DNA of 64,000 bases from Candidatus Omnitrophota bacterium (GTDB taxonomy: Bacteria > Omnitrophota > Gorgyraeia > Gygaellales > UBA12090). A model generated the notes under the pieces. The model searched no databases. It saw only the letters and a list, made by a program, of their open reading frames with translations, and was not told the DNA's origin. The position numbers and the translations under genes are program-made. Shown piece after piece: positions 19,879 to 45,048 of the stretch (position 1 is the stretch's first letter; each line of letters opens with the position of its first letter). The stretch lies in contig JAUSCZ010000033.1 of assembly GCA_030674475.1 (NCBI GenBank), positions 52,018-116,017 on the forward strand, read 5' to 3'.

Positions 19879-21852
19879 GTGGAGAAGTTTAAATTAACTA
19901 GTTCTTTCAAGCCGGCCGGGGATCAACCCCAAGCGATTGAGGCTTTAACCCAGGGGATTAAGGATGGCCGGAAATATCAAACCCTCTTGGGAGTTACCGG
20001 CTCAGGCAAGACCTTTGCCCTGGCTAATACAATCGCCAAAATCAATAAACCTACCTTAGTTATTTCCCACAATAAAACCCTGGCCGCCCAGCTTTACGGC
20101 GAATTTAAGGAATTCTTCCCGAAAAACGCGGTAGAATATTTTGTCAGCTATTACGACTATTATCAGCCGGAGGCCTATGTCCCTTCCACTGATACCTATA
20201 TTGAGAAAGACGCCTCGATTAACGACCGGCTGGACCGGCTTCGCCTTTCCAGCACTACTTCTTTGCTCAGCCGGCAGGACTGTTTAGTGGTGGCCTCGGT
20301 TTCCTGTATCTATAATTTGGGCTCACCCGAGGATTACCGGGAGTCTCTGGTTTTTCTGGATTTGGGCCAGATAATCCGGCGCGATGAATTATTAAGACAC
20401 TTAATTGACATCCAATACGAGCGCAATGATTACGAATTTATCCGCGGTAAAATCAGGGTGCGGGGGGACACGATAGAGGTCTACCCGGCTTACGCCCAGA
20501 GCGCCGTCCGGATTGAGCTTTTTGGCGATGAGATAGAAAAGATTATTGAGTTTAACCCGGTTGACGGTAAAAAGATAACCGAACTTTCTAAGATTGCTAT
20601 TTATCCGGCTAAGCATTTTATTATCCGCGGCCCCCGGATAGAAGACGCCCTAAAATCTATTTCTTATGAGCTCAGCCAACAGCTGGAACTTATGCGCTCC
20701 CAAAATAAAATCTTAGAGGCCCAGCGTTTAGAGTCGCGCACCAAATACGATATAGAGATGTTAAAGGAAATCGGCTATTGCCACGGGATAGAAAATTATT
20801 CCCGCCATCTTTCGGCCAGGCCCACCGGGAGCCGGCCGCACTGCCTGATAGATTATTTTCCTAAGGATTTTCTCTTGGTAATTGATGAAAGCCATGTAAC
20901 TATTCCCCAGATAAGGGGAATGTATGAGGGGGATAAGGCCAGAAAAGAGACTCTGGTAGAGTTCGGCTTTCGTCTGCCTTCCTGTTTGGATAACCGGCCC
21001 CTGAAATTTAACGAGTTTGAGGGTTTGATAAATCAGGCAATTTTTGTCTCAGCTACCCCGGCAGAATACGAGCTCAAAAAATCCAAGGGTCAGGTTATTG
21101 AGCAGATAATTCGGCCTACCGGTTTGATTGACCCGGAGATTATTATCAAGCCCATCGAGGGCCAGATTGAGGACCTGGTTAAGGAAATCTCCCAACGGGC
21201 CAAAAATAACGAGCGGGTTTTGGTAACTACCCTGACCAAGAGGATGTCTGAGGATCTATCCGCCTATTTAAAGGAAAAAGGCCTGAAGGTGAGATATCTA
21301 CATTCCGAGATTCAAACCCTTGAAAGGGTCAGGATACTTAAAGAATTGCGCCAGAAGAAGTTTGACTGCCTGGTAGGGGTAAATCTTTTGCGCGAGGGTT
21401 TGGACTTGCCCGAGGTTTCCCTGGTAGCCATATTAGACGCGGACAAGGAAGGCTTTTTAAGGTCAGCCACCAGCCTGATCCAGGTCTCCGGACGGGCCGC
21501 CAGGAATATTAACGGCCAGGTGATTATGTACGCGGATACCATTACCGGCTCAATGCGCCAGGCAATTGAAGAAAGCTCCCGGCGCCGGAAGAAACAGTTT
21601 GAATTTAATCTCAAGAATAAAATCACTCCCCGGAGTATCCAGAAGTCCATCCGCGAAGGCCTTGAGCTTTTGGATGAAGCCGAGAGCCTGGTTGAAGGCC
21701 TCACCGGCTTAGCCAAAGAAGAATACGAGCTGAGCTCCTATATCAGCGAGCTGGAATACCAGATGGAGCTGGCCGCCCGCAACCTGCAGTTTGAAGAAGC
21801 CGCCCGGATAAGGGATAAGATCAAGGAACTAAAGACAGGCAGCCCTGATTAA
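19879..21852 (+). CDS. uvrB: excinuclease ABC subunit B
   Basis: GVTGSGKTF Walker A, helicase motifs, C-terminal UvrB/UvrC interaction domain. GTG start. Confidence 0.95.
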   Translation: MEKFKLTSSFKPAGDQPQAIEALTQGIKDGRKYQTLLGVTGSGKTFALANTIAKINKPTLVISHNKTLAAQLYGEFKEFFPKNAVEYFVSYYDYYQPEAYVPSTDTYIEKDASINDRLDRLRLSSTTSLLSRQDCLVVASVSCIYNLGSPEDYRESLVFLDLGQIIRRDELLRHLIDIQYERNDYEFIRGKIRVRGDTIEVYPAYAQSAVRIELFGDEIEKIIEFNPVDGKKITELSKIAIYPAKHFIIRGPRIEDALKSISYELSQQLELMRSQNKILEAQRLESRTKYDIEMLKEIGYCHGIENYSRHLSARPTGSRPHCLIDYFPKDFLLVIDESHVTIPQIRGMYEGDKARKETLVEFGFRLPSCLDNRPLKFNEFEGLINQAIFVSATPAEYELKKSKGQVIEQIIRPTGLIDPEIIIKPIEGQIEDLVKEISQRAKNNERVLVTTLTKRMSEDLSAYLKEKGLKVRYLHSEIQTLERVRILKELRQKKFDCLVGVNLLREGLDLPEVSLVAILDADKEGFLRSATSLIQVSGRAARNINGQVIMYADTITGSMRQAIEESSRRRKKQFEFNLKNKITPRSIQKSIREGLELLDEAESLVEGLTGLAKEEYELSSYISELEYQMELAARNLQFEEAARIRDKIKELKTGSPD

Positions 21853-21910
21853 ATTTGAATAGGGTTTCACCAAATTCCCTCTTCTTTCAGAGAAAGGGTT
21901 GTCGGTTCAC

Positions 21911-21958
21911 CAAATTCCCTCTCCCTCCGGGAGAGGGCTAGGGCGAGGGGGAATGAAA
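21911..21958. repeat. GC-rich hairpin element family C (aattccctc...gggagagggctagggcgagggggaa), copy 1; likely the uvrB terminator
   Basis: 9 bp perfect stem ccctctccc/gggagaggg. Homologous copy at 53393-53447. Confidence 0.7.
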
Positions 21959-21965
21959 CGATTTT

Positions 21966-21995
21966 CTTGACAGTGTATTCAATTTTGAGTACAAT
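21966..21995 (+). promoter_or_regulatory. sigma70-like promoter (TTGACA-17-TACAAT) for the 22016 gene
   Basis: Consensus hexamers with correct spacing. Confidence 0.5.
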
Positions 21996-22015
21996 CGTAC
22001 TCAAAAGGAGCAGAA

Positions 22016-22588
22016 TTGTTAAATCTTTATATCACCAAATCCAGAATCAGGCAGGATCTGCTTGCCCTATTTTTCACCAATCCTTCTCAAAGGTATTACC
22101 TCAGAGAGATTCAACGTATTCTCGGGCATTCCGCCGGCACTATCCGCAGGGAGCTTTTAAGATTCCAGGAAGACAGCTTATTCACCACCAAGAGAAACGG
22201 CAATCTTTTATACTATTCGTTAAACAGGAAGCATCCTTTATTTGATGAATTAAAAAGTATTATTTCAAAAACAATCGGCATGGAAGGAAGCCTGAAAAAC
22301 GCGTTAGTATCGCTTAAGGGAATAAGTTTTGCCTTTATTTACGGGTCGTTTGCCTCCAGGAAAGAAAAATCCGCGAGCGATATTGACTTGATGGTAATCG
22401 GGGACCCTGATGCGTCTTTACTTAATGAGAAAATAGCTCAGTCGGAAAATAAGCTGAAGAGAGAAATAAACCACCTGGTGTATTCTTTAGAAGAATACAA
22501 GGCGAAGAAAAAGACAAAAAGCGGTTTTATCACGGATATTCTGAATAATCCCAAAATAATGCTGATAGGACAGGAAAGTGAATTATAA
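22016..22588 (+). CDS. winged-HTH (ArsR-like) + minimal nucleotidyltransferase fusion protein
   Basis: YYLREIQRILGHSAGTIRRELLRF HTH; GSFASR...DIDLMVIGD Pol-beta nucleotidyltransferase motif. Confidence 0.65.
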   Translation: MLNLYITKSRIRQDLLALFFTNPSQRYYLREIQRILGHSAGTIRRELLRFQEDSLFTTKRNGNLLYYSLNRKHPLFDELKSIISKTIGMEGSLKNALVSLKGISFAFIYGSFASRKEKSASDIDLMVIGDPDASLLNEKIAQSENKLKREINHLVYSLEEYKAKKKTKSGFITDILNNPKIMLIGQESEL

Positions 22589-22605
22589 TACCAGGAAAAC
22601 TTTCC

Positions 22606-24414
22606 ATGAGTAACCCTAAATATAAAAATAGCCGCGGCCGGCTGCGCATTGGCGACGATTGGAACGCGATAACAATTATCGCGCTTTCGCAAAACAATCC
22701 TTTAAAGGCAATTGCTGAATTGGTGGAAAATAGCATTGACGCCCAGGCCGGACATATTACCATTATCCGCGGTAAAGAACACGGAGAGCACTACCTTAAA
22801 GTTATCGACGATGGACAGGGTATTCCTTGCGATGGGGAAGGTATTCCTGATTTTAAGTATGTGGCAACCCATATCTGTGATTCGCTGAAACGGCGTTTAA
22901 AAGAAGGAGGCTTCCAAAACATTCAGGGAGAATTCGGTATCGGCCTGCTTAGTTTTTGGACCGTCGGACATAAACTATTGATGGTCTCTTCCGGCAAAGA
23001 TGGCAAGGCCTACCAAATGAATATGGAGAAAGGTAAGCCAGGTTATTCAATATCCCACCGTCCCCATCTGCTACCCATAAAAGGAACGCAGTTAACCATA
23101 GCCTCTTTGCTCGCGGGAATACGTATGCTCAGCGGCGAAAAAATTCAACGATATTTAGCCTCCGAGTTAAGAGACCGGATTCGTCATTCAGGCGTGAAGA
23201 TTAAGATTATTGACCGAACCGCTCGCGCGGAGTTTGAGGTTGAACCGCGCCAATATGAAGGCCAGCTTATCCATGATCTTCCTTTGCTTACAACGGCTTT
23301 CGGTGAACCTATTTATGTGGAGATATATATCGCGGGAAAAAATAGCGAAAACAGCGTTAGCCTTTTTCGTTCAGGGACACGGGTGCTCCCTAATATCTCT
23401 ATACTTGATTTCTTTCAATGTGAGCCCTGGACTTCCGGTTATTTTGAGGGAATTATTGATGCTCCCTTCTTACATCTTACGCCCGGCACCAGAGACGGAA
23501 TAATTCATGATGAACTATTGTCCGGATTCTGTGATTCTATAGCGCCTCTTAAAGAACGGCTGACGGCAATTGCTTTGGAGCAAGGCAAAGCTGAAGAAGA
23601 GCGGATGAGCAAGAATATACTCCGTTCCGTGCAGAAGGCATTCCTTGATGCTATGACCGCTTTGCCGCCCGAAGAATATGATTGGTTTGGTATCGAGCAA
23701 AAGAACGCGCATCGTTCGTCCACTGACAACAATGATATCGCGAAGGAAAATGGCGTAATGATGGTTCCTGACGCGCTAAGGCAGGGAGAGAAGAAAAGCG
23801 GGCAGAAAGAGTTTTTCGAAATCGCCGGGCCGCTCTTTTCCACCCGTATCCAGCCAGGTTCGGCACTGGTGCAGGTGGGCAAGACGAAACCTTTCCGGGC
23901 TATCGGATTAGATCGCAACAAACGTCAGGTAGAAGAGAATCTCTCATATCTATGGTGTATTACGGAAGGAAAAGGAGATCTCGATAAATTAGACGGCGAG
24001 ATGGTTGTTTTTAACGCCCCCCTGGAACCCGGCTTGAGTAAATTAAAACTGGTGATTCAACGAGACGATATACGTTGCGAGACAGAAAGCATCGTTACCG
24101 TTGTGGATTCTTTGTTTAAGGTTTCGGCTGAAAACAGTGAATTCCCACGCAAGGGATTACCCGGCTATACGCTAGAAAGCGCCCCTGGATATACCTGGCG
24201 CTCGCGCTATGACGAAAAACGCAATATTGTTATCATCAACAGCGGCCATCGCGATTTCATTTACGCCGGACGCGAGAAAGCCAGAAAACTGCGCTATATC
24301 TGCCGCCTCTTCGCCAAAGAATTGATTTTGCAAAATTTTGCCGGTCTGTCTTCCGGAGAACTCCTGGAGCGTCTGGTCGAATTATCATTATACACTGAAG
24401 AGAATTTGCGCTGA
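22606..24414 (+). CDS. GHKL (Bergerat-fold, MORC/HSP90/MutL-like) ATPase, 602 aa
   Basis: N-box ELVENSIDA, G1 DDGQGI, G2 GEFGIGLLS. Confidence 0.7.
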   Translation: MSNPKYKNSRGRLRIGDDWNAITIIALSQNNPLKAIAELVENSIDAQAGHITIIRGKEHGEHYLKVIDDGQGIPCDGEGIPDFKYVATHICDSLKRRLKEGGFQNIQGEFGIGLLSFWTVGHKLLMVSSGKDGKAYQMNMEKGKPGYSISHRPHLLPIKGTQLTIASLLAGIRMLSGEKIQRYLASELRDRIRHSGVKIKIIDRTARAEFEVEPRQYEGQLIHDLPLLTTAFGEPIYVEIYIAGKNSENSVSLFRSGTRVLPNISILDFFQCEPWTSGYFEGIIDAPFLHLTPGTRDGIIHDELLSGFCDSIAPLKERLTAIALEQGKAEEERMSKNILRSVQKAFLDAMTALPPEEYDWFGIEQKNAHRSSTDNNDIAKENGVMMVPDALRQGEKKSGQKEFFEIAGPLFSTRIQPGSALVQVGKTKPFRAIGLDRNKRQVEENLSYLWCITEGKGDLDKLDGEMVVFNAPLEPGLSKLKLVIQRDDIRCETESIVTVVDSLFKVSAENSEFPRKGLPGYTLESAPGYTWRSRYDEKRNIVIINSGHRDFIYAGREKARKLRYICRLFAKELILQNFAGLSSGELLERLVELSLYTEENLR

Positions 24415-24590
24415 TTGCAGGCCGGGTTACCCTACTAACAGGAGCAAATTGACCCGCGGAAGATAAAAAGCGAGAATGCCAAGATTCAAGACCCCTTTTA
24501 TCCTATCCACGAGAGCAGATTTGCCAACTTAGAGACAAATTTTACCCAACAGACAAGCTTAGCGCCATGTTTGTTGGGTAATTTATTTTG

Positions 24591-24650
24591 TTGACATTTG
24601 TTACCTAACAAGTTAAATTATAGTATGGTTTGTTAGGTAACAGGAGGACT
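24591..24650 (+). promoter_or_regulatory. promoter with inverted-repeat operator (ttgttacctaacaa / ttgttaggtaaca) upstream of small protein A
   Basis: TTGACA ... TATAGT flanked by a 13 nt inverted repeat. Confidence 0.5.
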
Positions 24651-24651
24651 T

Positions 24652-24972
24652 ATGAGAGGTGTTATAAAAGGAGTATTGGCGGAAGAATTGGAAAATTCTC
24701 TTCGCATGAAGAAGGAATACGAAGGAGCTTTGAGGAATTTGCCTAAAGGGTGTCTTGCGGTAAGAAAAATACGAGGCCATGAGTATTGTTACCTGGCAGA
24801 AAGAGTGGATAAGAAAGTAAAGTATATTTACAAAGGTAAACTATCCGCAGAAGAAAAGAAAAGGTATGAAGAGGCCAAAGAATTAAGGGCTAAATACAGG
24901 AAATTATTGTCTCAAGTCAAAAAGCAAATAAGATTCTTAAGGAGTTCTCTGCGTGGAAAAGAAGCAGTCTGA
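24652..24972 (+). CDS. small basic protein, paralog A (putative regulator/antitoxin-like partner of the nucleotidyltransferase)
   Basis: ~60% identical to the 27362-27679 product; operator palindrome upstream. Confidence 0.6.
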   Translation: MRGVIKGVLAEELENSLRMKKEYEGALRNLPKGCLAVRKIRGHEYCYLAERVDKKVKYIYKGKLSAEEKKRYEEAKELRAKYRKLLSQVKKQIRFLRSSLRGKEAV

Positions 24973-25256
24973 TTTATGCCTTGAAATCTTAAGGAGGCTC
25001 CATAAGGCCGGTATCTTGGATGATTTAATCCTTATAGGCAGTTGGTGCGTATATTTCTATAGAGAATATTCCAGCAATGTGTCCTACATGGATCAAACCA
25101 CTATGCGAAATCAGTCATTCAGGACAAAGAAAGACAGAAAACTTGAACTTGTTTTCAACCGAAAAAGAAATTTCCAGGGGATGGCGTAAGATTGCCGTTA
25201 AGGTGGTTGATATTTTTGGTAATGATACGATAAGAGTAATTAAGGTGAATATATAA
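24953..25256 (+). pseudogene. decayed fusion: N-terminal ~45 codons of nucleotidyltransferase paralog A joined to a 3' remnant of a type III mod gene
   Basis: MEKKQSDLCLEIL...LIGSWCVYFY matches the start of the 27660 protein. SFRTKKDRKLEL and, in another frame, RKIAVKVVDIFGNDTIRVIKVNI* match the C-terminus of the 29779-32064 Mod. Confidence 0.7.
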
Positions 25257-25299
25257 GTTTTTATATGGCCAATATATGATAAAAGGGGGGGGGTAATGC

Positions 25300-26991
25300 A
25301 TGAAAAAAAATCTTTTGGATACAAAAACAGCTTCATGGGGGGAGTTAATTAAGAATGGAAGAACCTTTATGGTCCCAAGATTTCAAAGAGATTATTCGTG
25401 GGAGGAAGAGCAATGGGATGATCTTTGGTATGACTTGGTTAATTTAGAGGAAGAAGATTTTCATTATATGGGGTATTTAGTATTACAAAATAGCCCCACG
25501 AATGAATATCTGGTTATCGACGGACAGCAGAGATTGACGACTTTAAGTATTATTGCTTTAGCGGTGATTCAACACATCGCGGAATTGATTGAGAAAGGTA
25601 AGGACCATAAAAACAACGAAGAGCGCAAGAAATTGTTGATGGACTCGTTTCTTGGATATAAAGATCCGGCTTCTTTGGTAGCCAAGAGCAAATTAACGCT
25701 TAATCGTAATAATAATGATTTTTATCAAAGTTACTTATTGCGTTTTAGAAAACCAACGAGTAAAAGTAAACTCAAGCCTTCTGAAAAACTTCTTATTAAC
25801 GCTGTCGAATATTTTTATGAAAAGATAAAGTTTAAGTTCGGTCAGGATATTTCAGGTGAGAAATTGGCTGATTTTCTTGATAAGAAAACGGCGGATAAAT
25901 TTATATTCACGTTTATTACTGTTGATAATGATTTGAATGCTTACAAAGTATTTGAAACACTCAATTCAAGGGGGGTGAGGCTATCTCCCACGGATTTGTT
26001 AAAAAATTATTTGTTTATGGTGGCGGCTCAAAAAGGCGAAACTGATATCGATCAAGCTGAAAGACAATGGCAAAGTATTAATAATATTTTAGGTGGAATA
26101 GAGCTTACCACATATCTAAGGCATTTTTGGAATTCGAGAAATATGATCGCCAGAAAGCAGAATTTATTTAAAGTTGTTAAGAATTCAATTACTGACGCGG
26201 ATCAGGCCTTCGCTTTATTGGATGAACTTGAAAATAACGCGCAACTTTACGCGGCTTTTTCTCAGCCAGAAGATGAGCTTTGGAAACAGGCTGAGCAAAG
26301 CGAATATATTAGACAATTAAAATTATTCGGCGTGACCCAGTGTTATCCTCTTTTGTTGGCGGCTTATAAGAAGTTTGACCCGAATGAATACGCTCGTTTA
26401 TTGAGATGCTGTTGTGTGATTGCTTTTCGATACAATGTGATTGGCGGGCTAAATCCCAATAAGCTGGAAGATGAATACAGCAAAACGGCTCAGGATGTTT
26501 ATGCCGGCACGCTGAAAAACGCGCGGGAAATATTTCATAACCTGAAATCGGTTTATGTCATTGATGAAGAGTTTGAAAGCTCATTCGCCGCGAAAAGTAT
26601 TACCACCAAGGGAAAGGGCGCGAAATTAGTCAGATATATCCTTTTCTCATTGGAAAATCAGATAAGCAATAAAAAATATGATTTTAGTGATAGCTCCGTA
26701 ACTATCGAGCATATATTACCGGAAAATCCTTCTCAAAGCTGGGAGTCAAATTTTACTATTGAAGAGCAAATTCAATTTGTATTTCGTTTAGGCAATTACG
26801 CGCTTTTGGAAGAATCAAAAAATAAAATGTGTCAAAACGACTTTTATCCGACAAAGAAAGAAATTTACAAAACAAGCAGTTATAAAATAACAGCCCAAGA
26901 TAGCGTATGCGATGAATGGAACCCCGAAAGAATTTCAGAGAGACAAAAGAAGTTGGCAAAATACGCTAAAACTGTCTGGAAATTTGAGTGA
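25300..26991 (+). CDS. GmrSD-like type IV (modification-dependent) restriction enzyme, DUF262 + DUF1524
   Basis: N-terminal DUF262 (ParB-like) motifs (...VIDGQQRLTT), C-terminal His-Me/HNH-like SVTIEHILPEN. Confidence 0.75.
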   Translation: MKKNLLDTKTASWGELIKNGRTFMVPRFQRDYSWEEEQWDDLWYDLVNLEEEDFHYMGYLVLQNSPTNEYLVIDGQQRLTTLSIIALAVIQHIAELIEKGKDHKNNEERKKLLMDSFLGYKDPASLVAKSKLTLNRNNNDFYQSYLLRFRKPTSKSKLKPSEKLLINAVEYFYEKIKFKFGQDISGEKLADFLDKKTADKFIFTFITVDNDLNAYKVFETLNSRGVRLSPTDLLKNYLFMVAAQKGETDIDQAERQWQSINNILGGIELTTYLRHFWNSRNMIARKQNLFKVVKNSITDADQAFALLDELENNAQLYAAFSQPEDELWKQAEQSEYIRQLKLFGVTQCYPLLLAAYKKFDPNEYARLLRCCCVIAFRYNVIGGLNPNKLEDEYSKTAQDVYAGTLKNAREIFHNLKSVYVIDEEFESSFAAKSITTKGKGAKLVRYILFSLENQISNKKYDFSDSSVTIEHILPENPSQSWESNFTIEEQIQFVFRLGNYALLEESKNKMCQNDFYPTKKEIYKTSSYKITAQDSVCDEWNPERISERQKKLAKYAKTVWKFE

Positions 26992-26994
26992 TTT

Positions 26995-27222
26995 ATGGCG
27001 CCGCGCGCGCAAGGTTATGAAAAACTATTCCCGCCTTTTGTGCCGGAGCTTAGGAAGCGGGTTAAGGAGTGGCGGGATAAGGGCTACGAGGGGGCGAGCG
27101 CGACATCAAGGGCTCTTTTAAGCTGGCGGTTCAAAGAAGACCTCTTGCTTATGGAATATAAGCTTACAGTGAGAGAAAGACGAGATAATGTCTACTGTCC
27201 GGGTCTGACCCCTAAAACCTAA
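26995..27222 (+). pseudogene. 5' fragment of a type III res gene (duplicate of the 33113 gene N-terminus)
   Basis: GYEKLFPPFVPELRKRVKEWRDKGYEGASA; ~90% nt identity to 33205-33345, then diverges and stops. Confidence 0.7.
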
Positions 27223-27361
27223 AACCGCTTGAAAGTTACCATACTTAGTATGACATTCCTGCATTTGTATGGTAACTTTTTTGTTTGACAATGGTTGTCA
27301 TACAATATATACTATTATATAGTTTGTATGGTAACTAATTCAATCGAACGGAGAGTTTAAT

Positions 27362-27679
27362 ATGGGAGTCATAAAAGGAGTGCTTAAAGAAGAACTCGAG
27401 AATTCTATACGCATGAAAAGCGACTATGAGCGTGAATTGGCAAAGCTGCCTAAAGGCAGCCTCATTAAGAAAAAGGTTAAGGGGCATGAGTACTATTATC
27501 TTTTGTTGCGGGAGAAAGGGAAGGTAAGATTCATCTATAGAGGGAAAGTGTCTGATGAAGAAATAAAAAAATACAAAGAAGCAAAAGAATACAGGGCTAA
27601 GTACAGAAAATTATTATCTCAGGTAAAAAAACAAATTAGATTCTTAAGGAGCACTCTGCGTGGAAAAGAATCAATATGA
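27362..27679 (+). CDS. small basic protein, paralog B
   Basis: Paralog of the 24652 product; upstream inverted repeats agttaccatac / gtatggtaact. Confidence 0.6.
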   Translation: MGVIKGVLKEELENSIRMKSDYERELAKLPKGSLIKKKVKGHEYYYLLLREKGKVRFIYRGKVSDEEIKKYKEAKEYRAKYRKLLSQVKKQIRFLRSTLRGKESI

Positions 27680-28352
27680 ACTATGCATTAAGGTTCTAAA
27701 AAGATTTGATAAGGCCGGAGTTCTAAAAGACGTTATTCTTATAGGTAGTTGGTGTATTCCATTCTATAAAGAATATTTTGCGGGCATAAAGTATATCTCG
27801 ACCATTAAGACAAGAGATGTAGATTTCTTGATTCCCAACCCGCGCGGAATCAGGGCTAATGTGAATATCCCAGAATTATTAAAAGACTTAGGATTTATCA
27901 TTGGTTATAGGGGAGCAAAAGGATATATTAAATTAGAACATCCTGATCTGGTAGTGGAATTTTTATCTCCAGAGAAAGGAAAAGGCACCGATAGGCCAAT
28001 CCCCTTACCGAAGTTAGGCGTTAACGCGGTTGCTCTGAGATTTTTGAGTTTGCTTACTGATAATGTAATTAAGGCTAAAGTTGAAGATTTTGAAGTCTTA
28101 TTACCTCATCCTGCCAATTTCGCCCTCCACAAATTAATAATTTTCCAGCGTAGACTCAAAGAAGATAAAGCAATAAAAGACAGAAATGCGGCGGTAGAAA
28201 TTCTTAAAGCTTTGATAACTAAGGGCGAAGCGGTAACTATCAAGCACGTTTTTAATTCCATGCTTCCAAAATGGCAGAAAAAAGTTATAAAAGGATTGCA
28301 GGAAGCCAAAGAAAGAGAGATTATTCTTATACTACAAAATGCCGGAAAATAG
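27660..28352 (+). CDS. Pol-beta superfamily nucleotidyltransferase, paralog B (AbiEii/DUF1814-like toxin candidate)
   Basis: LIGSWCIPFY...TRDVDFLIPN (hGS ... DxD). Start overlaps the small protein. Confidence 0.55.
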   Translation: MEKNQYELCIKVLKRFDKAGVLKDVILIGSWCIPFYKEYFAGIKYISTIKTRDVDFLIPNPRGIRANVNIPELLKDLGFIIGYRGAKGYIKLEHPDLVVEFLSPEKGKGTDRPIPLPKLGVNAVALRFLSLLTDNVIKAKVEDFEVLLPHPANFALHKLIIFQRRLKEDKAIKDRNAAVEILKALITKGEAVTIKHVFNSMLPKWQKKVIKGLQEAKEREIILILQNAGK

Positions 28353-28451
28353 TCTATGTAGTGTATGTATAAAGGAATAAGGGGTTATGCCTCAAAACTC
28401 CAAAATAGTCCTTGACGTTGGAATTGATAAGAGATTGGATAAATTGTAAAT

Positions 28452-29732
28452 TTGAGGTCTGACCCTATTAGCTCATTGACTGTTCACATAGGAGAATTAA
28501 ATGTGGCCATATATTTTTTCAATCAATACAGTGCTTTAATTAATGAATTTAACATAGACAATGATAAGGTGGGGCAACAAAAAAAGAAGATTTTTGTTTC
28601 GATGTGGTATGGAGAAGAAAATGATGGCACTAAGCAAGAACAATCGGATCTTTATGACGAATATTTTAAAGGAGCAATCGAGAAAAAAGGAATCTACAAA
28701 GTAATTTCTACAAAGATAAAAGATAATGATAAGGATATTGATATTGATTTTGGTCTGAAATATTTGCTTGAAACCACGATAGCTGATGATACTAGAAAAG
28801 ATGATATAAGTTTTGACATTTTCAGAAAGATTATCGAAGCCAGTCTAATTATTTGTGATGTTACGCCGATTGGAAAAATTCAGGATAAAGAAAAGCCGGT
28901 ATTTTGCGATAATGTCATGGCAGAATTAGGATTAAGCTTAGCATGGAAACTACCCGAACAAGTTATCATCCTTTTTAATATAGAAAATAGTTTTAAATTC
29001 TCCTTGAACGAGCTTCCATTCAATATCAAAGGCTATTTTGTCCACAGATTAGATTTCAATAATCAAAATTTTAAAAAAGACTTATTAAAGATTATTAAAG
29101 TAAGATTTGAAGGCATAAATGAAAAAAAGAGTATTTTTATAAAAAATATAAAGAGCAAGCTTGATCAGGATTCTATTAGCGCTTTAGCGGGACGAAATGG
29201 ATTGATGTTTTTTGATCAGAAAGTAGATGTGCATACGATTCGCTATTTATTATCTCTTGGTATTATACGAACCGAACAATTTCCATCAAGACCTATTAGT
29301 TTTGGATATTGTTTGACCGAAATGGGCAAAGTTGTTCTTACTCAACTCGGTATACAGTTATTTCCAGAAGAATTCATTGATTTTTATTTAGTGCGTTACT
29401 GGGAGGGATATTCTGCTGCGAAGGGTTATGCCCCGCACAATTTTGAAGAAAAGCAGAAAGCTTTCGAAAAAGCTTATGGAATTAAAGATTGGAAAGATAG
29501 TCTACGAATTTTTGTAGAACAAATACTGCAAGAGGTTAAAAAAGTAATTGAAGATGCTCCGACAGTAAAAAGAGGAATAGAAGAGCGTTCTAAGGAAAAA
29601 CAAAATGGATATAGTCATGATTTAGAGATTTTTCCCTATTTCGTTGATTCCTATCCCTTTGAGTTGGTGAATTCAACAGTTTCAAAATGGTTGAAGTTGA
29701 CGCATAATAAGAAGAAAAATGAATCAGCATGA
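28452..29732 (+). CDS. hypothetical protein with N-terminal nucleoside 2-deoxyribosyltransferase/SLOG-like domain
   Basis: IFVSMWYG ... LIICDVTP ... NVMAELGLSLAW...VIIL resembles the N-deoxyribosyltransferase/TIR-like Rossmann signature. Start uncertain: TTG at 28452 or GTG at 28503. Confidence 0.4.
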   Translation: MRSDPISSLTVHIGELNVAIYFFNQYSALINEFNIDNDKVGQQKKKIFVSMWYGEENDGTKQEQSDLYDEYFKGAIEKKGIYKVISTKIKDNDKDIDIDFGLKYLLETTIADDTRKDDISFDIFRKIIEASLIICDVTPIGKIQDKEKPVFCDNVMAELGLSLAWKLPEQVIILFNIENSFKFSLNELPFNIKGYFVHRLDFNNQNFKKDLLKIIKVRFEGINEKKSIFIKNIKSKLDQDSISALAGRNGLMFFDQKVDVHTIRYLLSLGIIRTEQFPSRPISFGYCLTEMGKVVLTQLGIQLFPEEFIDFYLVRYWEGYSAAKGYAPHNFEEKQKAFEKAYGIKDWKDSLRIFVEQILQEVKKVIEDAPTVKRGIEERSKEKQNGYSHDLEIFPYFVDSYPFELVNSTVSKWLKLTHNKKKNESA

Positions 29733-29778
29733 ACCAATTTAAGCGTCTCTACAATGTTACCCTCGGCTGATCCAGGAT

Positions 29779-32064
29779 TTGTTTTTTAAAGGTAAAAAGA
29801 TAATGAGATTATCGGATAACGAAAAAAGAGACGCGATAAAGTTGCTTCAGGAAGGGAAGCCTTTGCCTGATAAATACCGCTTTCTTTTGTTTGCTGATGA
29901 CCGGGAGGTTGAGCTGGTGTGGAATGGGAAGACGCAGGAAGTTTGCAATCTGGTTTTGCCCTTTCAGACTATTGAGCATATTGATGAGCCGAGGAGTGAG
30001 AGAATAAAAAAGGGCGGTTATGTTGGGGATTTGTTTGATCCCTCCGGGCGTCAGATTCGGGGATGGACGAATAAGCTGATATGGGGAGATAACAAGCTGA
30101 TTTTATCGTCTTTAAAGAATGGGCCAATGAGGCGGGAAATTGAAAAACAGGGCGGTTTAAAGCTGATCTATATTGACCCGCCGTTTGACGTGGGAGCGGA
30201 TTTTTCAATGAATGTTGAGATCGGAGACGAATCCTTCACCAAAAAGCCGTCAGTTATTGAAGAGGTAGCTTATCGGGATACCTGGGGGCAAGGTGCGGAT
30301 AGCTTTATTGCTATGATTTACGAGCGGTTGAAGCTCATGCACGGACTTTTGGCGGATGACGGCAGTATTTATGTGCATTGTGATACACGTGTTAGTTCAT
30401 ATATGAAATTAGTACTAGATGATGTGTTTTCCAAAGAAAATTTCATCAATGAAATCATTTGGAAAAGATCAACTGCCCATAGCGACAATAGAGCTTATGG
30501 AAATCTGCATGATACGATTTTCTATTACACAAAAAGCGATGATGCAGTCTTTAATCCCGTTTATGATCCCTATTCGGAAGACTACATTCAAACCTATTAT
30601 CGGCATGATGACGCTAAGGGTAAATTCTTGGATCGAGATTTGTCTGCAAAAGGTTTATCAGGCGGAGGCTATCAGTATGAATGGAAAGGTAAAAATGGAA
30701 TTTGGCGTTGTCCAAAGACCACTATGGAGCGATACGAAGCCGAGGATAAAATATATTACACTTCCAACGGTACACCACGATATAAGCAATATCTAAATGA
30801 GATGCCGGGTATTTCTGCGCAAGACATTTGGACCAATATATTTGCGGTTAATTCACAAGCCAAAGAGCGAATAGACTATCCAACACAAAAACCAGAGACT
30901 CTTCTTGAGCGTATTATCAAAGCGTCTTCCAACGAAGGCGATCTTGTTGCTGATTTCTTTTGTGGTTCCGGCACGACTTTAGCAGTTGCGGAAAAATTGG
31001 GGCGGAAATGGATTGGTGCAGATCTCGGACGTTTTGCTATTCATACATCCCGTAAGCGGTTAATTCAGGTTCAGCGCGAGATGAAAAAAGAGGGTAAGAA
31101 TTTTAGGGCGTTTGAGATTCTTAACCTCGGCAAATATGAGCGGGAGCAATATGTCAATGTTGATGTGGATATCCGGGAGCAGGAAAAACAGCAGATTTTA
31201 GAAAACAAAGAAAAGCAGTTTATTGAACTGATCCTTTCTGCCTATAACGCCCAAGCTGTGGATTCTTACAATTCGTTTGTCGGTAAGAAGCGTGACCGGC
31301 TGGTTGCGGTCGGTCCTGTTGATACGCCGGTATCAGCCGCTTTTGTTGATCAGGCGATTAAGGAAGCTAAGGAGAAAGGAATCACTAAATTTGATGTTCT
31401 CGGTTTTGATTATGAGATGGGGATTGATTTCGCGCAACTTAGCCGCCAGGGCGTTGATGTGCAGTTTAAGGTTATTCCCCGGGAAGTTTTTGACCGCCGC
31501 GCGGTGGAAAAAGGGCAGGTGAAATTCTACGATGTTGCCTACATTGAAGTGAAGCCGATCATCAAAGGGCGGGGGAATAATAAAACGATAGCGGTTGAAC
31601 TGTGCGATTTCAGCGTATTTTATAATCAGGACAGCGTTGAAGAGATAGAGGGATCGCTTAAAGAAGGTTCAAGTAAGATCGTAATTGAGAATGGACAAGT
31701 TATTAAGGTATCCAAAGACAAAAAGACAGCGGTGGTAACTAAAGAAGTTTTGACCAAGAAATGGACGGACTGGGTGGATTACTGGTCGGTTGATTTTAAT
31801 ATGGAGAACAGAAAAGAGATTGTCCGGGTGCCGGTAAATCCCCCCTTGCTCCCCTTTTCCAAAGGGGGGTTGGAATTTGAAGAAAAATGGACTGGCGGGT
31901 ATATATTTGAAAATGAGTGGCAGTCATTCAGGACAAAAAAAGAGAGAAAACTTGAGCTTATATCTGCTGAGAAAGAAGTTTCCCTGGGGCGGCGTAAGAT
32001 TGCCGTTAAGGTGGTTGATATTTTCGGCAATGATACGACAAGAGTAATTGAGGTTAATATATGA
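29779..32064 (+). CDS. mod: type III restriction-modification DNA N6-adenine methyltransferase (Mod)
   Basis: Motif IV IYIDPPF and motif I DFFCGSGTT in the beta-class order. Start may be the ATG at 29803. Confidence 0.85.
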   Translation: MFFKGKKIMRLSDNEKRDAIKLLQEGKPLPDKYRFLLFADDREVELVWNGKTQEVCNLVLPFQTIEHIDEPRSERIKKGGYVGDLFDPSGRQIRGWTNKLIWGDNKLILSSLKNGPMRREIEKQGGLKLIYIDPPFDVGADFSMNVEIGDESFTKKPSVIEEVAYRDTWGQGADSFIAMIYERLKLMHGLLADDGSIYVHCDTRVSSYMKLVLDDVFSKENFINEIIWKRSTAHSDNRAYGNLHDTIFYYTKSDDAVFNPVYDPYSEDYIQTYYRHDDAKGKFLDRDLSAKGLSGGGYQYEWKGKNGIWRCPKTTMERYEAEDKIYYTSNGTPRYKQYLNEMPGISAQDIWTNIFAVNSQAKERIDYPTQKPETLLERIIKASSNEGDLVADFFCGSGTTLAVAEKLGRKWIGADLGRFAIHTSRKRLIQVQREMKKEGKNFRAFEILNLGKYEREQYVNVDVDIREQEKQQILENKEKQFIELILSAYNAQAVDSYNSFVGKKRDRLVAVGPVDTPVSAAFVDQAIKEAKEKGITKFDVLGFDYEMGIDFAQLSRQGVDVQFKVIPREVFDRRAVEKGQVKFYDVAYIEVKPIIKGRGNNKTIAVELCDFSVFYNQDSVEEIEGSLKEGSSKIVIENGQVIKVSKDKKTAVVTKEVLTKKWTDWVDYWSVDFNMENRKEIVRVPVNPPLLPFSKGGLEFEEKWTGGYIFENEWQSFRTKKERKLELISAEKEVSLGRRKIAVKVVDIFGNDTTRVIEVNI

Positions 32065-32165
32065 ATCAATTAAGCAATGACCATTTCGAGGATATCCTCG
32101 AAATGGTAGATAGCAGAAAACATAAAAAAGATTACGAGCAAAAAAAGCAAGAGGTTATTATTTAG

Positions 32166-32963
32166 ATGAAGTGTATCCATATTTATTCAGATGAAAGTCG
32201 GCATAGAAATGAACGATTTTTGCTCCTGGCGGGCTTATGGATTGAGGAATCAAAAATCAAAGCGGCTGAGAATGAAATTACTGCTTTCCGCAAAAAACAC
32301 GGTTTCGTTAATTCTCAAGGGCAGCATGCCGATTTTCTTGGTGAGTTTAAGTGGACAAAGGTTTCTCAGCGTTATTTGCCGGTCTATAAAGAATTGGCTG
32401 ATATAGCGTTTAAATGGATTGCGGAAGATAGAGCTCGTTTTAATGTGATTCTTGTTGACACTCAGGATGCAGCTGTTACGGCGTTCGGAAACATAAAGGA
32501 AGAGGGATATTTTAAGCTTCTTTATCAGCTTTATTACCACAATTCAAAAACTCCTGCTCTATATAAAATCTATCCTGACAGTATCACTAATCCGGTTCAA
32601 GCGCGCGTTAGTCTTGATAAGCTACAGCAGTGTCTTGAAGTGGCCCTGCGCAACAGGTTTCTACCGCTTCTGAACCCCGCGGAGACTCAAGAGCCGGTCT
32701 CTTTTGTGAATAATATTTTACCAATTGATTCAAAGCATGCGCCGTTTATTCAGATTGCCGATGTGATCATGGGCGCGATCGGGTACTTACAAAACGGTTT
32801 GTTTAGAAATCCCGCGGCGAAAAAGGCAAAAGTTGAATTGATGAAATATATTTTTGATAAAATAACTCTATCGGGCGCTATACAGGTGCAAGGAAAGAAA
32901 TACTTTGTCGCGCGGTCAACGAAGTTTAATATATGGTTGTTCCGGCCAAAAAAAACCTCTTAA
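32166..32963 (+). CDS. DUF3800-family protein
   Basis: N-terminal IHIYSDESRH and the overall pattern of DUF3800; located between mod and res. Confidence 0.6.
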   Translation: MKCIHIYSDESRHRNERFLLLAGLWIEESKIKAAENEITAFRKKHGFVNSQGQHADFLGEFKWTKVSQRYLPVYKELADIAFKWIAEDRARFNVILVDTQDAAVTAFGNIKEEGYFKLLYQLYYHNSKTPALYKIYPDSITNPVQARVSLDKLQQCLEVALRNRFLPLLNPAETQEPVSFVNNILPIDSKHAPFIQIADVIMGAIGYLQNGLFRNPAAKKAKVELMKYIFDKITLSGAIQVQGKKYFVARSTKFNIWLFRPKKTS

Positions 32964-33112
32964 AATTTTAAGAGGTTTTTTTGGAGTCCTGGGCCCTGGG
33001 TCAATGCCCCGTGTGACATCAGTCACAGGATACGTGACCCAGTAACTCCAAAAATAGGATATCACAAATCTCGAGTTTGTCAAGGTTTTAGATAGATAGA
33101 GAGAGAAATAAT

Positions 33113-35797
33113 ATGGCATTGCATAAAGATTTTCCTAAGGATAAGTTCGCGATTTTAGAACCGGAGATTCGCTGGTTTCCGGCTGATGAGGCGTTGCGTG
33201 CCCCGGGAGGCTATGAAAAACTGCTCCCGCCTTTTGTGCCGGAATTGAGAAAGCGTGTTAAGGAGTGGCGGGATAAGGGCTACGAGGGGGCGAGCGCGGT
33301 ATCAAAGGCTCTTTTAAGCTGGTGGTTCAAAGAAGAACATCTTGGCTTTGGGGTGGACGGCAACGCGTTTTCATTCCGGTATTATTTTGCCCAGCGTGAG
33401 GCAGTTGAAACTATTATCTGGTTGTATGATGTTGCCGGAGTACGAAACAAATATGACCTTTTGCCGTTTGATTCATTGGGGCGGGTAAGCCCGAATATGT
33501 TTGATGAGGACTGGCTTAGGTTAGTTATTAAGATGGCCACCGGAAGCGGCAAAACAAAGGTAATGAGTTTGCTTCTGGCATGGTCTTATTTTCATAAGCT
33601 CTATGAGCCGGAGTCGGGGCTTTCCCGCAATTTTCTTTTAATTACGCCGAATATTATCGTGCTTGAGCGTATCAAGACCGATTTTGGCGGATTAAAGATA
33701 TTCCATCATGACCCTGTTTTGCCGGATAATGGATATGAAGGTAGAAACTGGCAGGATGATTTTCAGATAACCTTGCATTTACAAGATGATTTGACCGCGA
33801 TTTCTCCTACCGGAAATATTTTTCTTACCAATATACACCGTGTTTATGAGGGCGATGTCAAGGAGTCGTCTTTTAGCGATGGGGATTTGACGGATTATTT
33901 TTTAGGGAAAAAGCCTGTTTCAAAAACAAACGAATCCTTGGTTGAGCTTAGTAATGTGGTCCGGGAAATTGATGAGATCGTTGTTTTTAACGATGAAGCC
34001 CATCACATTCACGATCCCAAGATGGCCTGGTGGACATCAATCCAAGATATAAATAATAAATTGAAACAGAAAGGCAGGCAGATTTCTTTACAGATAGACT
34101 GCACGGCAACGCCAAAACATGATAATGGATCAATCTTCGTGCAGACGATTTCCGATTATCCGCTGGTTGAGGCAATTTATCAAGGGGTGGTTAAGACTCC
34201 CGTGCTTCCGGATCAGGCCAGCCGGGCCAAATTACAGGAAAAACAGAGCGCGCTGTTTACCGAGAAATATGAAGATTATATCAATCTTGGTATCGAAGAA
34301 TGGAAAAAGGCTTCCAAGGAACTTGAACCGACCGGGAAAAAAGCTATTTTGTTTATTATGACCGATGATACAAAAAACTGTGATGAGGTGCAGGCGTATT
34401 TAGAAAAGAATTATTCCGCTTTAAACGGTAAAGTTTTGACTATTCATACGAATAAAAGCGGTGATATATCGGAAAAGGTAACCGGTAAGGCCAAGGAAGA
34501 ATTGGATCGCCTGCGGAAAGAAGCCAATGAAATTGATGGACTGGAAAGCCCTTATCAGGTAATCGTTTCGGTTTTAATGCTCAAGGAAGGATGGGATGTT
34601 AAGAACGTTACCACAATAGTAGGCCTTCGAGCATACGCGGCGGCATCAAACATTTTGCCGGAGCAAACGCTTGGCCGGGGTTTGAGGCGGATGTTTTTCG
34701 GCCAGGAAGATGTGGAAGAATATGTAAGCGTGGTGGGAACGCCGGCATTTATGGATTTTGTGGAGTCAATTAAGGCGGAAGGCGTGGATTTGGAAAAGCG
34801 AAAGATGGACTTAACGACAAAGGCGATTACGCCGACGGTCATTGAAGTTGACCGGGACAATCCCAAAAAAGATATTCAAAGGTTGGATATTGAGCTTCCG
34901 ATTTTAACGCCGAGGATTCAGAGGGAATACAAAGACTTGGCGAGTTTGAATGTAGCAGGTTTTCAGCATGGTAAGTTGAAGGTAAAGACGTTTAGCGAGC
35001 AGGAGCAGCGAGAGATTGTGTTCAAGCACGTGGTTGAAGAAAAGGTTCACCATACGACTATTCTGGAAAGCAATATTGAGCCGAACTATCAGAGCGTGGT
35101 TGGTTTTTTCGCTCAAAGCATTATGCGGGAGCTTCGCCTTTTTGGGTGTTACGACATTTTATTCGGTAAGGTTAAAGAGTTTATTTATTCGCGCCTGTTT
35201 GAAACAGCGGTTGACCTTAATGACAAGAATGTTTTAAGAAACCTTTCAGAAATTGAAGCCATAAAGACAATAATCCAGACTTTTAAGAATGAAATCAACG
35301 CCTTAACGGTGAAGGATGTTGGTGATACCGAGATTAAGAATTATATTAAGGTCAGCAGCAGCCGCCCGTTTGTCGTTAATGACCGGATGTATTTAGTGCC
35401 CAAGAAAAGCGTATTTAACAGAATTGTCGCAGATAATCAGTTTGAGCTTGATTTCGCGGATTTCCTGGAACGATTGGGCGATGATGAAGTTATTTCCTTC
35501 GCGAAGAATTATTATGGAGTGCATTTTAAGATAGACTATAAGAACGCCGACGGGACGATAGCGAATTATTACCCGGACTTCTTTGTTAAAACTGATGAAA
35601 AGACGGTGTATATCGTTGAGACTAAGGGGCGCGAGGATTTGGATGATTCTTTGAAGATTAAAAGGCTTGCTCAATGGTGCGATGACGCGAACGCCCGGCA
35701 GAAAAAGATTACTTATAAAATGCTCTATGTGAAGCAGGAAGTTTGGGAGAAGTATAAGCCTAAGAATTGGAAAGAGCTTATTGTTGCTTGCAATTAA
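33113..35797 (+). CDS. res: type III restriction enzyme Res subunit (SF2 helicase + nuclease)
   Basis: Walker A MATGSGKTKV, DEAH box FNDEAHH, helicase C-terminal motifs; ~890 aa. Confidence 0.85.
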   Translation: MALHKDFPKDKFAILEPEIRWFPADEALRAPGGYEKLLPPFVPELRKRVKEWRDKGYEGASAVSKALLSWWFKEEHLGFGVDGNAFSFRYYFAQREAVETIIWLYDVAGVRNKYDLLPFDSLGRVSPNMFDEDWLRLVIKMATGSGKTKVMSLLLAWSYFHKLYEPESGLSRNFLLITPNIIVLERIKTDFGGLKIFHHDPVLPDNGYEGRNWQDDFQITLHLQDDLTAISPTGNIFLTNIHRVYEGDVKESSFSDGDLTDYFLGKKPVSKTNESLVELSNVVREIDEIVVFNDEAHHIHDPKMAWWTSIQDINNKLKQKGRQISLQIDCTATPKHDNGSIFVQTISDYPLVEAIYQGVVKTPVLPDQASRAKLQEKQSALFTEKYEDYINLGIEEWKKASKELEPTGKKAILFIMTDDTKNCDEVQAYLEKNYSALNGKVLTIHTNKSGDISEKVTGKAKEELDRLRKEANEIDGLESPYQVIVSVLMLKEGWDVKNVTTIVGLRAYAAASNILPEQTLGRGLRRMFFGQEDVEEYVSVVGTPAFMDFVESIKAEGVDLEKRKMDLTTKAITPTVIEVDRDNPKKDIQRLDIELPILTPRIQREYKDLASLNVAGFQHGKLKVKTFSEQEQREIVFKHVVEEKVHHTTILESNIEPNYQSVVGFFAQSIMRELRLFGCYDILFGKVKEFIYSRLFETAVDLNDKNVLRNLSEIEAIKTIIQTFKNEINALTVKDVGDTEIKNYIKVSSSRPFVVNDRMYLVPKKSVFNRIVADNQFELDFADFLERLGDDEVISFAKNYYGVHFKIDYKNADGTIANYYPDFFVKTDEKTVYIVETKGREDLDDSLKIKRLAQWCDDANARQKKITYKMLYVKQEVWEKYKPKNWKELIVACN

Positions 35798-35837
35798 AAG
35801 AAAGTCTGAAGAAGCAACTTGGACAAAGAATTGAAAT

Positions 35838-37973: not shown

Positions 37974-37990
37974 ATTAAGAAAGGAAAAAA

Positions 37991-39780: not shown

Positions 39781-41433
<1,653 letters not shown>

Positions 41434-44993: not shown

Positions 44994-45035
44994 AAACCAT
45001 AAACCATAAACCATAAACTATCAACTATCAACTAT
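44994..45035. repeat. heptamer tandem repeats (aaaccat)x3 + (caactat)x3, with an imperfect inverted copy at ~44950-44968
   Basis: Direct reading; lies in the intergenic region upstream of marC. Confidence 0.85.
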
Positions 45036-45048
45036 TTAACATTAATCT

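Follow-up and report, generated by a model that had tools for sequence, protein, structure and literature searches.

What is the block of DNA that separates the core genes uvrB and birA in an uncultured Omnitrophota bacterium, and how did it come to lie there? The question is raised by a stretch of 64,000 nucleotides (hereafter the window) of contig JAUSCZ010000033.1, assembly GCA_030674475.1, from a Candidatus Omnitrophota bacterium, in which a preliminary description had singled out positions 21853-35837 as a mosaic defence island containing a type III restriction-modification (R-M) system encoded by mod and res. We conclude that this block is very probably a horizontally acquired defence island at a recombination hotspot between uvrB and birA, assembled from stacked, independent immune modules. 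Its gene content, its status as an insertion, its gene relics, its turnover between strains and the occupancy in relatives of a slot between mod and res were all observed directly. The island is genuine but typical of its kind, and the concepts of defence islands and of embedded defence genes are both established.

The site between uvrB and birA

The island spans 13,985 bp from the stop of uvrB (19879-21852) to the start of birA (35838-36632), and its sizeable open reading frames (ORFs) all lie on the + strand. It had been described as an AT-rich block bracketed by uvrB and birA-coaX, and the compositional check proposed at that time agrees: the GC content of the island is 0.405, compared with 0.461 in its flanks, where none of 45 windows of 14 kb falls below 0.453, and its tetranucleotide distance from the flanks is deviant as well, peaking at +12 standard deviations at 25-30 kb. 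Within the island the GC content is heterogeneous, ranging from 0.449 in the segment with the nucleotidyltransferase (NTase) and GHKL ATPase genes to 0.322 in p426, a 426-aa ORF; this uneven deviation fits piecemeal acquisition.

Three related genomes (L001, L002 and L003) were found by a GTDB scan with BirA, at BirA identities of 46-68%. In all three, valS-nadC-uvrB-birA-coaX are contiguous as far as the contigs reach, with a gap of 10-244 bp between uvrB and birA. The suggested synteny comparison thus places uvrB beside birA in three Omnitrophota relatives, and 21853-35837 is an insertion at a variable site between these genes. No integrase, transposase, recombinase or phage structural gene was present among the island ORFs, with all ORFs of at least 90 aa accounted for. 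Self-comparison found no direct repeats flanking the island, and no tRNA was found at the uvrB/birA site.

The genes named in the preliminary description are all present at their positions, all on the + strand. A scan with defence profiles, which had also been proposed, covered 12 island ORF products, and six of them matched PADLOC models at E<=1e-26. The features of the island are as follows.

21853..22015, + strand: left junction, with two copies of TTCACCAAATTCCCTCT, a GC-rich hairpin (21917-21937) and a near-consensus promoter, TTGACA-17-TACAAT (21967-21995)
22016..22588, + strand: winged helix-turn-helix (wHTH) with minimal NTase, PDC-M05A-like (Polbeta 1.6e-9; PADLOC PDC-M05A 1.2e-55; motif GS...DxD)
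22606..24414, + strand: stand-alone GHKL ATPase, 602 aa (HATPase_c_3 2.2e-10)
24652..24972, + strand: sm1, 106 aa, paralogue of sm2, with its own promoter and operator-like repeats upstream
24953..25110 (end approximate), + strand: N-terminal fragment of an NTP_transf_8 gene, ~52-64 codons, fused to the mod relic (tblastn match to NT8 residues 1-64 at 44%; DNA repeat)
25112..25254, + strand: relic of a mod 3' end, last ~47 codons (86% nucleotide (nt) identity to 31921-32062)
25300..26991, + strand: GmrSD-like type IV restriction enzyme, HEC-06 family (GmrSD_N, PF03235, 7e-40; GmrSD_C, PF07510, 4e-25)
27012..27147, + strand: relic of a res 5' region, codons ~33-77 (90% nt identity to 33208-33344; 87% aa identity)
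27362..27679, + strand: sm2, 105 aa, DUF6788-like, first gene of the intact module (promoter TTGACA-17-TATACT, 27285-27313)
27660..28352, + strand: NT8, NTP_transf_8 protein (PF12281 2.8e-22), NCBI name 'GSU2403 family nucleotidyltransferase fold protein'
28503..29732 (28452-29732 from TTG), + strand: p426, with a predicted TIR-like domain, winged helix and helical C-terminus
29779..32064, + strand: mod, intact type III methyltransferase (N6_N4_Mtase 3.8e-43; PADLOC MTase_III 1.8e-116)
32062..32165, + strand: 34-codon ORF, relic of a Bro-N (PDC-S13) gene, three pieces of which match the Bro-N gene of metagenome locus L043
32166..32963, + strand: DUF3800 gene, RNase H-like fold (Pfam 1.5e-13; PADLOC PDC-M04A 5e-36)
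32949..32982, no strand: perfect 34-nt palindrome flanked on either side by A/T runs, a hairpin resembling a bidirectional intrinsic terminator, at the end of the DUF3800 gene
33113..35797, + strand: res, intact type III restriction subunit (ResIII 1.7e-15; PADLOC REase_III 1.9e-26; NCBIfam BPTD_3080 family 1.6e-86)

The same site is occupied differently in a 165 kb ENA contig (L126), found through a GHKL protein 96% identical to that of the window. L126 matches the window at 89-94% nt identity through valS-nadC-uvrB and the NTase, GHKL and sm1 genes. Its order after uvrB is DUF559, PDC-M05A and PDC-M05B, GHKL (96% aa identity), sm1 (96%), Bro-N, a 128-aa gene and a res relic; farther along, a Schlafen/AlbA_2 gene and then a type I R-M system stand where the window has sm2-NT8-p426-mod-DUF3800-res. 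No type III system lies downstream in L126 within the 10 kb fetched. The site is therefore empty in L001-L003 and holds other cargo in L126, as in defence-island hotspots, and the earlier view of an actively rearranging immunity locus gains from L126 a direct counterpart, with another gene set at the same site and some relics in common.

The type I system of L126 (hsdM, hsdS and hsdR, at L126 15498-21692) has DUF1016/YhcG genes embedded between its subunits, and many L126 genes are split by frameshifts, probably through long-read errors. The closest GTDB relative (L009, DOMD01000155.1) is 94-98% identical in amino acid sequence downstream of birA. Its contig ends inside birA, at the edge of the island, as would be expected if strain variation had broken the assembly there. 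The junction between res and birA recurs identically in a separate 1.2 kb Logan contig (L122).

Type III restriction-modification genes and their cargo

A type III R-M system had been placed at 29779-32064 (mod) and 33113-35797 (res), with a DUF3800 gene between the two, and both profiles and motifs confirm it. In Mod, DPPF at residue 133 precedes FCGSG at residue 394, the motif order of β-class amino-methyltransferases, in which a target-recognition region separates the two. Homologues of Mod align from residue 5-9, and the real start of mod is probably ATG 29803. Res contains a Walker A motif (GSGKT, residue 144), DEAH (294), QTLGRGLR (QxxGRxxR, 518) and PD...ETK (PD...ExK, 821), and its gene ends 40 bp before birA. 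No simple-sequence repeat that could serve phase variation was found in mod.

EcoP15I and EcoP1I exemplify type III systems, in which mod and res lie next to each other and are transcribed together; Mod hemimethylates the DNA, and cleavage is ATP-dependent and needs two inversely oriented unmethylated sites. The window system is like EcoP15I and EcoP1I in its β-class N6-adenine methyltransferase, in the superfamily 2 helicase motifs and C-terminal PD-(D/E)xK of its Res, and in the co-orientation of its genes. It differs in that mod and res are 1048 bp apart, with a gene relic, the DUF3800 gene and the terminator-like palindrome in the 1.05 kb between them, and are not translationally coupled. 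Relatives with a tight mod-res junction (Mod 76%, Res 87-89% identity) were seen in two IMG/VR contigs predicted to be viral (L130 and L131), and this R-M family thus also travels on mobile or viral DNA.

The 34-codon ORF next to mod is what remains of an earlier occupant. Its first 19 nt, a 35-nt piece at 32078-32112 (100%) and its 3' end match the Bro-N gene of L043, a locus with an intact mod-BroN-res arrangement, whose Res is 93% identical in protein to that of the window and whose Bro-N matches PADLOC PDC-S13 at 6.9e-118. Since this relic lies ahead of the DUF3800 gene, the latter has displaced most of Bro-N. DUF3800 proteins have an RNase H-like fold with an N-terminal DE and a C-terminal QxxD motif (PMC7736814), and the window protein has both (DE at residue 9, YSDES; QxxD at residue 196, QIAD). 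Its match, PDC-M04A, belongs to a cassette of two families (PDC-M04; supplementary table 8, bioRxiv 10.1101/2024.01.29.577857); PDC-M04B had no match among the 12 island ORF products scanned. With the DUF3800 gene came its own bidirectional terminator and a spacer of ~130 bp ahead of res.

Within the Bro-N relic lies a perfect 28-nt palindrome, ACCATTTCGAGGATATCCTCGAAATGGT (window 32080-32107), which recurs at L043 3357-3384 and L045 4269-4296, ~190 nt into the Bro-N gene. We considered it as a recombination or att-like exchange site and rejected this reading, as the palindrome is Bro-N coding sequence, lies equally far into that gene in L043 and L045 and is absent from other slots. In the Bro-N gene of L126 this position (~12455-12485) is occupied by another sequence, in which 13 of 14 pairs still form. 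Compensatory changes may have conserved a hairpin here, although no more than two variants were seen.

To place the junction in context, 80 metagenome loci were fetched by Mod similarity (53-78% identity; the best 80 of more than 500 matches), and the 68 with a mod/res pair were counted. Among the 47 loci in mod->res order, 28 have at least 300 bp between the genes (300-3579 bp) and 19 have a junction of 2-14 bp; in res->mod order, at least 300 bp separate the genes in 15 of 21. Taking both orders together, the genes are at least 300 bp apart in 43 of the 68 loci, and the remaining gaps are 2-65 bp. The cargo falls into ~36 sequence clusters. Most of its ORFs (46 of 53) are co-oriented with mod and res, and at least seven loci have a cargo start codon that overlaps the stop codon of mod.

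Schlafen/AlbA_2 with HATPase_c_4 is the cargo of six loci, NYN of four, and STAND-like, Bro-N/PDC-S13 and DUF3800 genes of two each. Further cargo includes an AriA-like ABC ATPase, KilA-N/PDC-S22 (4e-134), a HEPN protein, a trypsin-like protease, GIY-YIG and a DUF262 protein (NsnA/PD-T4-2_A-like, 6e-71) together with a RiboL-PSP-type HEPN. Four cargo proteins (L083 2652-3407, L087 12160-12840, L104 12226-13044 and L042 12053-12607) had no Pfam or PADLOC match and are candidates for new defence genes.

The island also holds a dead copy of the R-M genes, which the preliminary description had listed as truncated duplicates of mod and res and which we identify with the relics at 25112-25254 and 27012-27147. 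The mod 3' relic matches Mod residues 720-761 at 71% aa identity and is 87% identical to the mod ends of L043, L047 and L049. The res 5' relic is 92% identical to the res of L043, and its first ~26 codons have been replaced by the 3' end of the GmrSD gene. As the mod relic precedes the GmrSD gene and the res relic follows it, GmrSD sits between a dead mod and a dead res, in an arrangement that mirrors the live mod-DUF3800-res. The sequence after the res relic (27148-27218) is post-deletion sequence common to L126. The end-point of the res truncation is likewise the same in L126, and the dead copy therefore predates the split between L126 and the window. An intact mod-GmrSD(HEC-06)-res donor was not found among the loci fetched; L075 has a DUF262-only protein with HEPN.

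That the enzyme framed by these relics is a GmrSD-like DUF262/DUF1524 type IV restriction enzyme, as first described, is borne out by the GmrSD_N and GmrSD_C profiles and by a full-length match to PADLOC HEC-06 (1.1e-216, residues 1-562). The N-terminal DUF262 (GmrS) and C-terminal DUF1524 (GmrD) domains are joined in one polypeptide, with DGQQR of the former at residue 74 and the His-Me motif of the latter, EHILP, at residue 470. HEC-06 is antiphage by experiment, and the substitutions Q79A, R80A, E471A and H472A abolish its defence (bioRxiv 10.1101/2024.01.29.577857). In the window protein, the numbering of DGQQR and EH(I)xP nearly coincides with that of Q79/R80 and E471/H472, the residues essential in HEC-06; the protein differs from HEC-06 in lying between type III R-M relics and not inside Hma. 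No relatives of this GmrSD were found on viral contigs.

Embedded defence genes are known in Hma, BREX, DISARM and type I R-M, where they were the source of the HEC and PDC candidates (Payne et al., bioRxiv 10.1101/2024.01.29.577857), and examples are PrrC in EcoprrI, BrxU in BREX and DarTG2 in type I R-M (PMC12255303). The cargo described here is like the embedded genes of Payne et al. in being defence-type, co-oriented, located inside an R-M system and variable among homologous hosts, and several families are held in common (HEC-06, PDC-S13, PDC-S22, PDC-M04A, HEC-09/NYN and AriA-like). It differs in its type III host, which lies outside the four systems surveyed there, and in the fossil series kept by the slot: a Bro-N relic, DUF3800, and GmrSD framed by a dead R-M copy. 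No report of embedding in type III R-M was found in the literature searched. The pairing of a GmrSD predicted to act on modified DNA with an R-M system predicted to act on unmodified DNA would follow the same logic as BrxU in BREX.

These results extend the known embedding pattern to type III R-M, as the same phenomenon and not as a new kind. Considering that type III systems, across the 68 related loci, carry embedded cargo often, and that much of it belongs to families already flagged in type I R-M, BREX, DISARM and Hma, type III systems can be mined likewise. A bolder proposal, which we regard as possible and on balance doubtful, is that the mod-res junction (occupied in ~60% of loci) is a dedicated, reusable cargo slot, that cargo is swapped through its conserved ends, and that the cargo is functionally coupled to R-M. 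Coupled cargo would either guard the R-M system, as PrrC guards EcoprrI, or use its transcription and translation; the latter is suggested by the cargo start codons that overlap the mod stop codon. If the proposal is true, applying 'guilt by embedding' to type III systems would open a new source of defence genes, with the unmatched cargo of L083, L087, L104 and L042, and possibly the hairpin inside the Bro-N cargo, as candidates.

The other modules

The wHTH-NTase and the GHKL ATPase had been described as a pair. Both genes are indeed present, but they do not form a functional pair. PDC-M05 consists of an NTase and a HEPN protein, and in L126 a 154-aa HEPN gene (PADLOC PDC-M05B 1.4e-11) lies between the NTase and GHKL genes. 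Relative to L126, a clean deletion of ~520 bp in the window takes out the HEPN gene and leaves 17 bp between the NTase stop and the GHKL start. Compared with PDC-M05 and type VII HEPN-MNT toxin-antitoxin systems, the window protein is alike in matching PDC-M05A and differs in that component B, present in L126, is absent; it is an orphan NTase without its HEPN partner. A homologue of the GHKL protein (P0038) has quite different neighbours and no adjoining NTase. Because the HEPN gene intervenes in L126 and GHKL homologues occur without an NTase, the adjacency of the two genes is mere juxtaposition, and a two-gene NTase-GHKL system was ruled out.

The GHKL ATPase itself has more than 4900 homologues, many of them in Omnitrophota, and no PADLOC match. 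In an AlphaFold2 (AF2) model (predicted local distance difference test (pLDDT) 69), an Hsp90/MutL-like N-terminal and middle domain are followed by a long helix, a β-sandwich and a helical C-terminus. The best Foldseek matches of this model were Hsp90/TRAP1 (E~1e-12), over the N-terminal and middle domains only, and the structure search recognized no nuclease-like domain in the C-terminus of the model.

Directly after uvrB, at 21866-21937, lie elements that resemble repetitive extragenic palindromic (REP) sequences, consisting of two copies of TTCACCAAATTCCCTCT and the hairpin CCCTCTCCCTCCGGGAGAGGG, which occur nowhere else in the window. Since similar elements (L126 8190-8740) bracket a DUF559 (Vsr-like) gene in L126, and this gene is absent from the window, those after uvrB may be the scar or the empty site of a small mobile unit.

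Two paralogous modules of a small protein and a nucleotidyltransferase had been noted; one (sm2 and NT8) is intact, and the second is truncated, with an N-terminal NT8 fragment behind sm1. In self-comparison, sm1 and sm2 are 69% identical in protein and 69% in DNA. NT8 keeps a GS...DxD motif and has 1162 homologues. In L128 and L129, a 105/106-aa gene with a weak DUF6788 match and a 229/230-aa gene overlap by 20 nt and stand alone between housekeeping genes. The pair of sm2 and NT8 is thus a conserved two-gene unit that moves as a unit, and its recurrence alone with a fixed overlap is typical of toxin-antitoxin-type modules, in which one product is toxic and its partner neutralizes it. A tblastn search over the 80 mod loci revealed no linkage of sm/NT8 to the type III R-M family, and nothing was found in the literature on PF12281/NTP_transf_8.

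The promoter region of sm1 (24570-24640) contains repeated, partly palindromic boxes, TTGTTAGGTAAC and GTTACCTAACAA, and that of sm2 (27236-27335) contains different boxes of the same kind, TTGTATGGTAAC and GTTACCATAC. Because the repeated boxes differ between the two promoters, they suggest that the sm proteins are autoregulators with diverged operator specificity.

The remaining module is p426, which had been called a SLOG/N-deoxyribosyltransferase-like protein. That assignment named the right broad superfamily, and a TIR-like domain of CAP12/Pycsar type joined to a winged helix is more precise. p426 itself has no significant Pfam match. Across its family, weak profile matches were obtained to CAP12-PCTIR_TIR in 6 of 12 members (best E 0.0016), to Nuc_deoxyrib_tr in 2 of 12 and to HxlR in 5 of 12, with all domain scores below the curated thresholds. 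Foldseek searches with an AF2 model (pLDDT 69) matched TIR-STING (prob 1.0, E 1.5e-3, TM 0.23-0.30) and a MarR-type wHTH (prob 1.0). Residue E158, within the motif NVMAELG, is invariant in the family. The profiles and the model together point to a TIR-like domain containing an invariant Glu, with a winged helix and then a helical region on its C-terminal side. The protein is like bacterial TIR effectors (CAP12/Pycsar TIR, TIR-STING) in these N-terminal matches, weak in both profile and Foldseek searches, and in the invariant Glu. It differs in being fused to a winged helix and helical domain and not to STING, SAVED or cyclic-nucleotide sensors, and in being encoded by a single gene with no cyclase nearby.

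The p426 family is rare. A word-index search found 11 homologues, and a profile search of 1.84 billion representatives found ~32 full-length 50%-identity cluster representatives, counted at E<1e-55 over nearly the whole profile. Genes for the homologues are found singly among housekeeping genes, and the one link to the type III R-M family found by tblastn over the 80 mod loci was a partial homologue upstream of mod in L045. Compared with homologues, the window gene has a 1-nt deletion after codon 4 (28501-28515, CCATAT-ATTTTTTC vs CCATATGAGTTTTTC), which puts the conserved ATG (28501) out of frame; the ORF is open from an overlapping GTG (28503) or from TTG (28452). A sequencing error may account for the deletion; otherwise p426 may be freshly disabled or may be translated from the GTG.

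Function and origin of the island

The biochemical activities of these modules, their antiphage function in this host and the mechanism of recombination are what we infer, drawing on what is known of the families. Mod would methylate host sites, and Mod with Res would cut unmodified incoming DNA. GmrSD would cut modified phage DNA and so cover phages that escape R-M by base modification. The DUF3800 nuclease, the TIR-like/wHTH protein and the pair of DUF6788-like and NTP_transf_8 proteins are probable abortive-infection or toxin-type effectors or back-ups, p426 being a probable NAD+ or nucleotide-degrading effector. Turnover would proceed by cassette replacement and deletion, without a mobility enzyme dedicated to it. 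Homologous recombination would use as its arms uvrB and birA, the core genes, as well as the conserved mod and res ends, and illegitimate deletions would contribute. On this model the mod-res slot is reusable: in the live system Bro-N was the former occupant, and the DUF3800 gene, accompanied by a terminator of its own, is the present one. Of the second, dead R-M copy, a mod 3' end and a res 5' fragment are all that survives, on either side of GmrSD.

Several points weigh against the interpretation of the block as a defence island of working modules. The window probably comes from a metagenome-assembled genome; outside support covers only its left part (L126) and the res-birA junction (L122), and L122 may derive from the same sample as the window. 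The NTase and DUF3800 proteins each match only component A of a two-gene system, PDC-M05 and PDC-M04 respectively, and either may be an inactive leftover. Given the terminator between DUF3800 and res, res needs a promoter of its own, which is putative, and p426 may be a pseudogene in view of its 1-nt deletion. With no PADLOC match for the GHKL ATPase, it is its location that points to a defence role. The 68 loci, drawn as they were from the best matches, represent one R-M family and do not sample type III systems at random. All of the activities proposed are predictions from homology.

The relics could have arisen by in-situ tandem duplication of one unit followed by deletions, with no second, independently acquired R-M allele, as the series sm1, NT fragment, mod relic, cargo, res relic runs parallel to that of sm2, NT8, p426, mod, cargo, res. 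We consider this unlikely, however, since the DNA of the copies has diverged unevenly (69% between sm1 and sm2, 86% between the mod relic and mod, 90% between the res relic and res), the mod relic matches the mod of other metagenomes (87%) at least as well as the resident mod (86%), and the res relic has a nearer match in L043 (92%) than in the resident res (90%). The res truncation is, moreover, older than the split from L126, which has no downstream type III system in the region fetched. It is still more improbable that the island is what is left after the integration of a mobile element (prophage, transposon or integrative element) with defence genes on it, rather than the product of a recombination hotspot. 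The predicted viral contigs with related mod-res pairs, the phage-associated Bro-N and KilA-N domains and the REP-like repeats at the left edge would suit such an origin. Against them stand the absence from 21853-35837 of any integrase, transposase, recombinase or phage structural gene, the lack of flanking direct repeats and of a tRNA at the site, and the mosaic pattern in which L126 has only parts of the island.

An assembly artefact, that is, a chimeric contig joining strain variants or organisms, would be in keeping with the probable metagenomic origin of the window, with the contig break of L009 inside birA and with repeated mod and res segments that could mislead an assembler. We regard this as very improbable: the res-birA junction is identical in L122, the order uvrB-NTase-GHKL-sm1 is repeated at 89-94% nt identity in the independent contig L126, and the repeats, at 135-143 nt and 86-90% identity, are too diverged to collapse. 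The preliminary description had itself named what would refute it, namely conserved, syntenic housekeeping genes of the lineage. The more than 4900 GHKL homologues, many in Omnitrophota, and the near-host GC content of the NTase-GHKL segment (0.449) are the points in favour of such genes; the direct adjacency of uvrB and birA in three relatives, the unrelated contexts of GHKL, NT8 and p426 homologues and the strongly deviant composition have already refuted the idea, and we give it practically no weight.

A horizontally acquired defence island at a recombination hotspot thus remains the reading that we prefer. The island resembles known hotspot defence islands between core genes in its empty or variable site, deviant composition, gene remnants and lack of a dedicated integrase. 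It differs in its uncultured Omnitrophota host and in its site, as uvrB/birA is not described as such a hotspot as far as we checked. A uvrB/birA defence hotspot and its turnover are thereby documented in a phylum with little-known phage defence, and the nested relics provide an unusually readable record of cargo replacement. The island also highlights as candidates the very abundant stand-alone GHKL ATPase, the rare TIR-like/wHTH protein and the pair of DUF6788 and NTP_transf_8 proteins.

Beyond birA, a 111-aa ORF and a DEAD-box helicase gene occupy 37638-39211, between coaX and the gene at 39793. This segment is absent in L002 and L003 and present in the close relative L009, and is a second, smaller variable segment adjoining the island. 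Farther downstream, the AT skew is strongly negative at 42001-43000 (-0.31) and 45001-46000 (-0.18), unlike in the remaining window.

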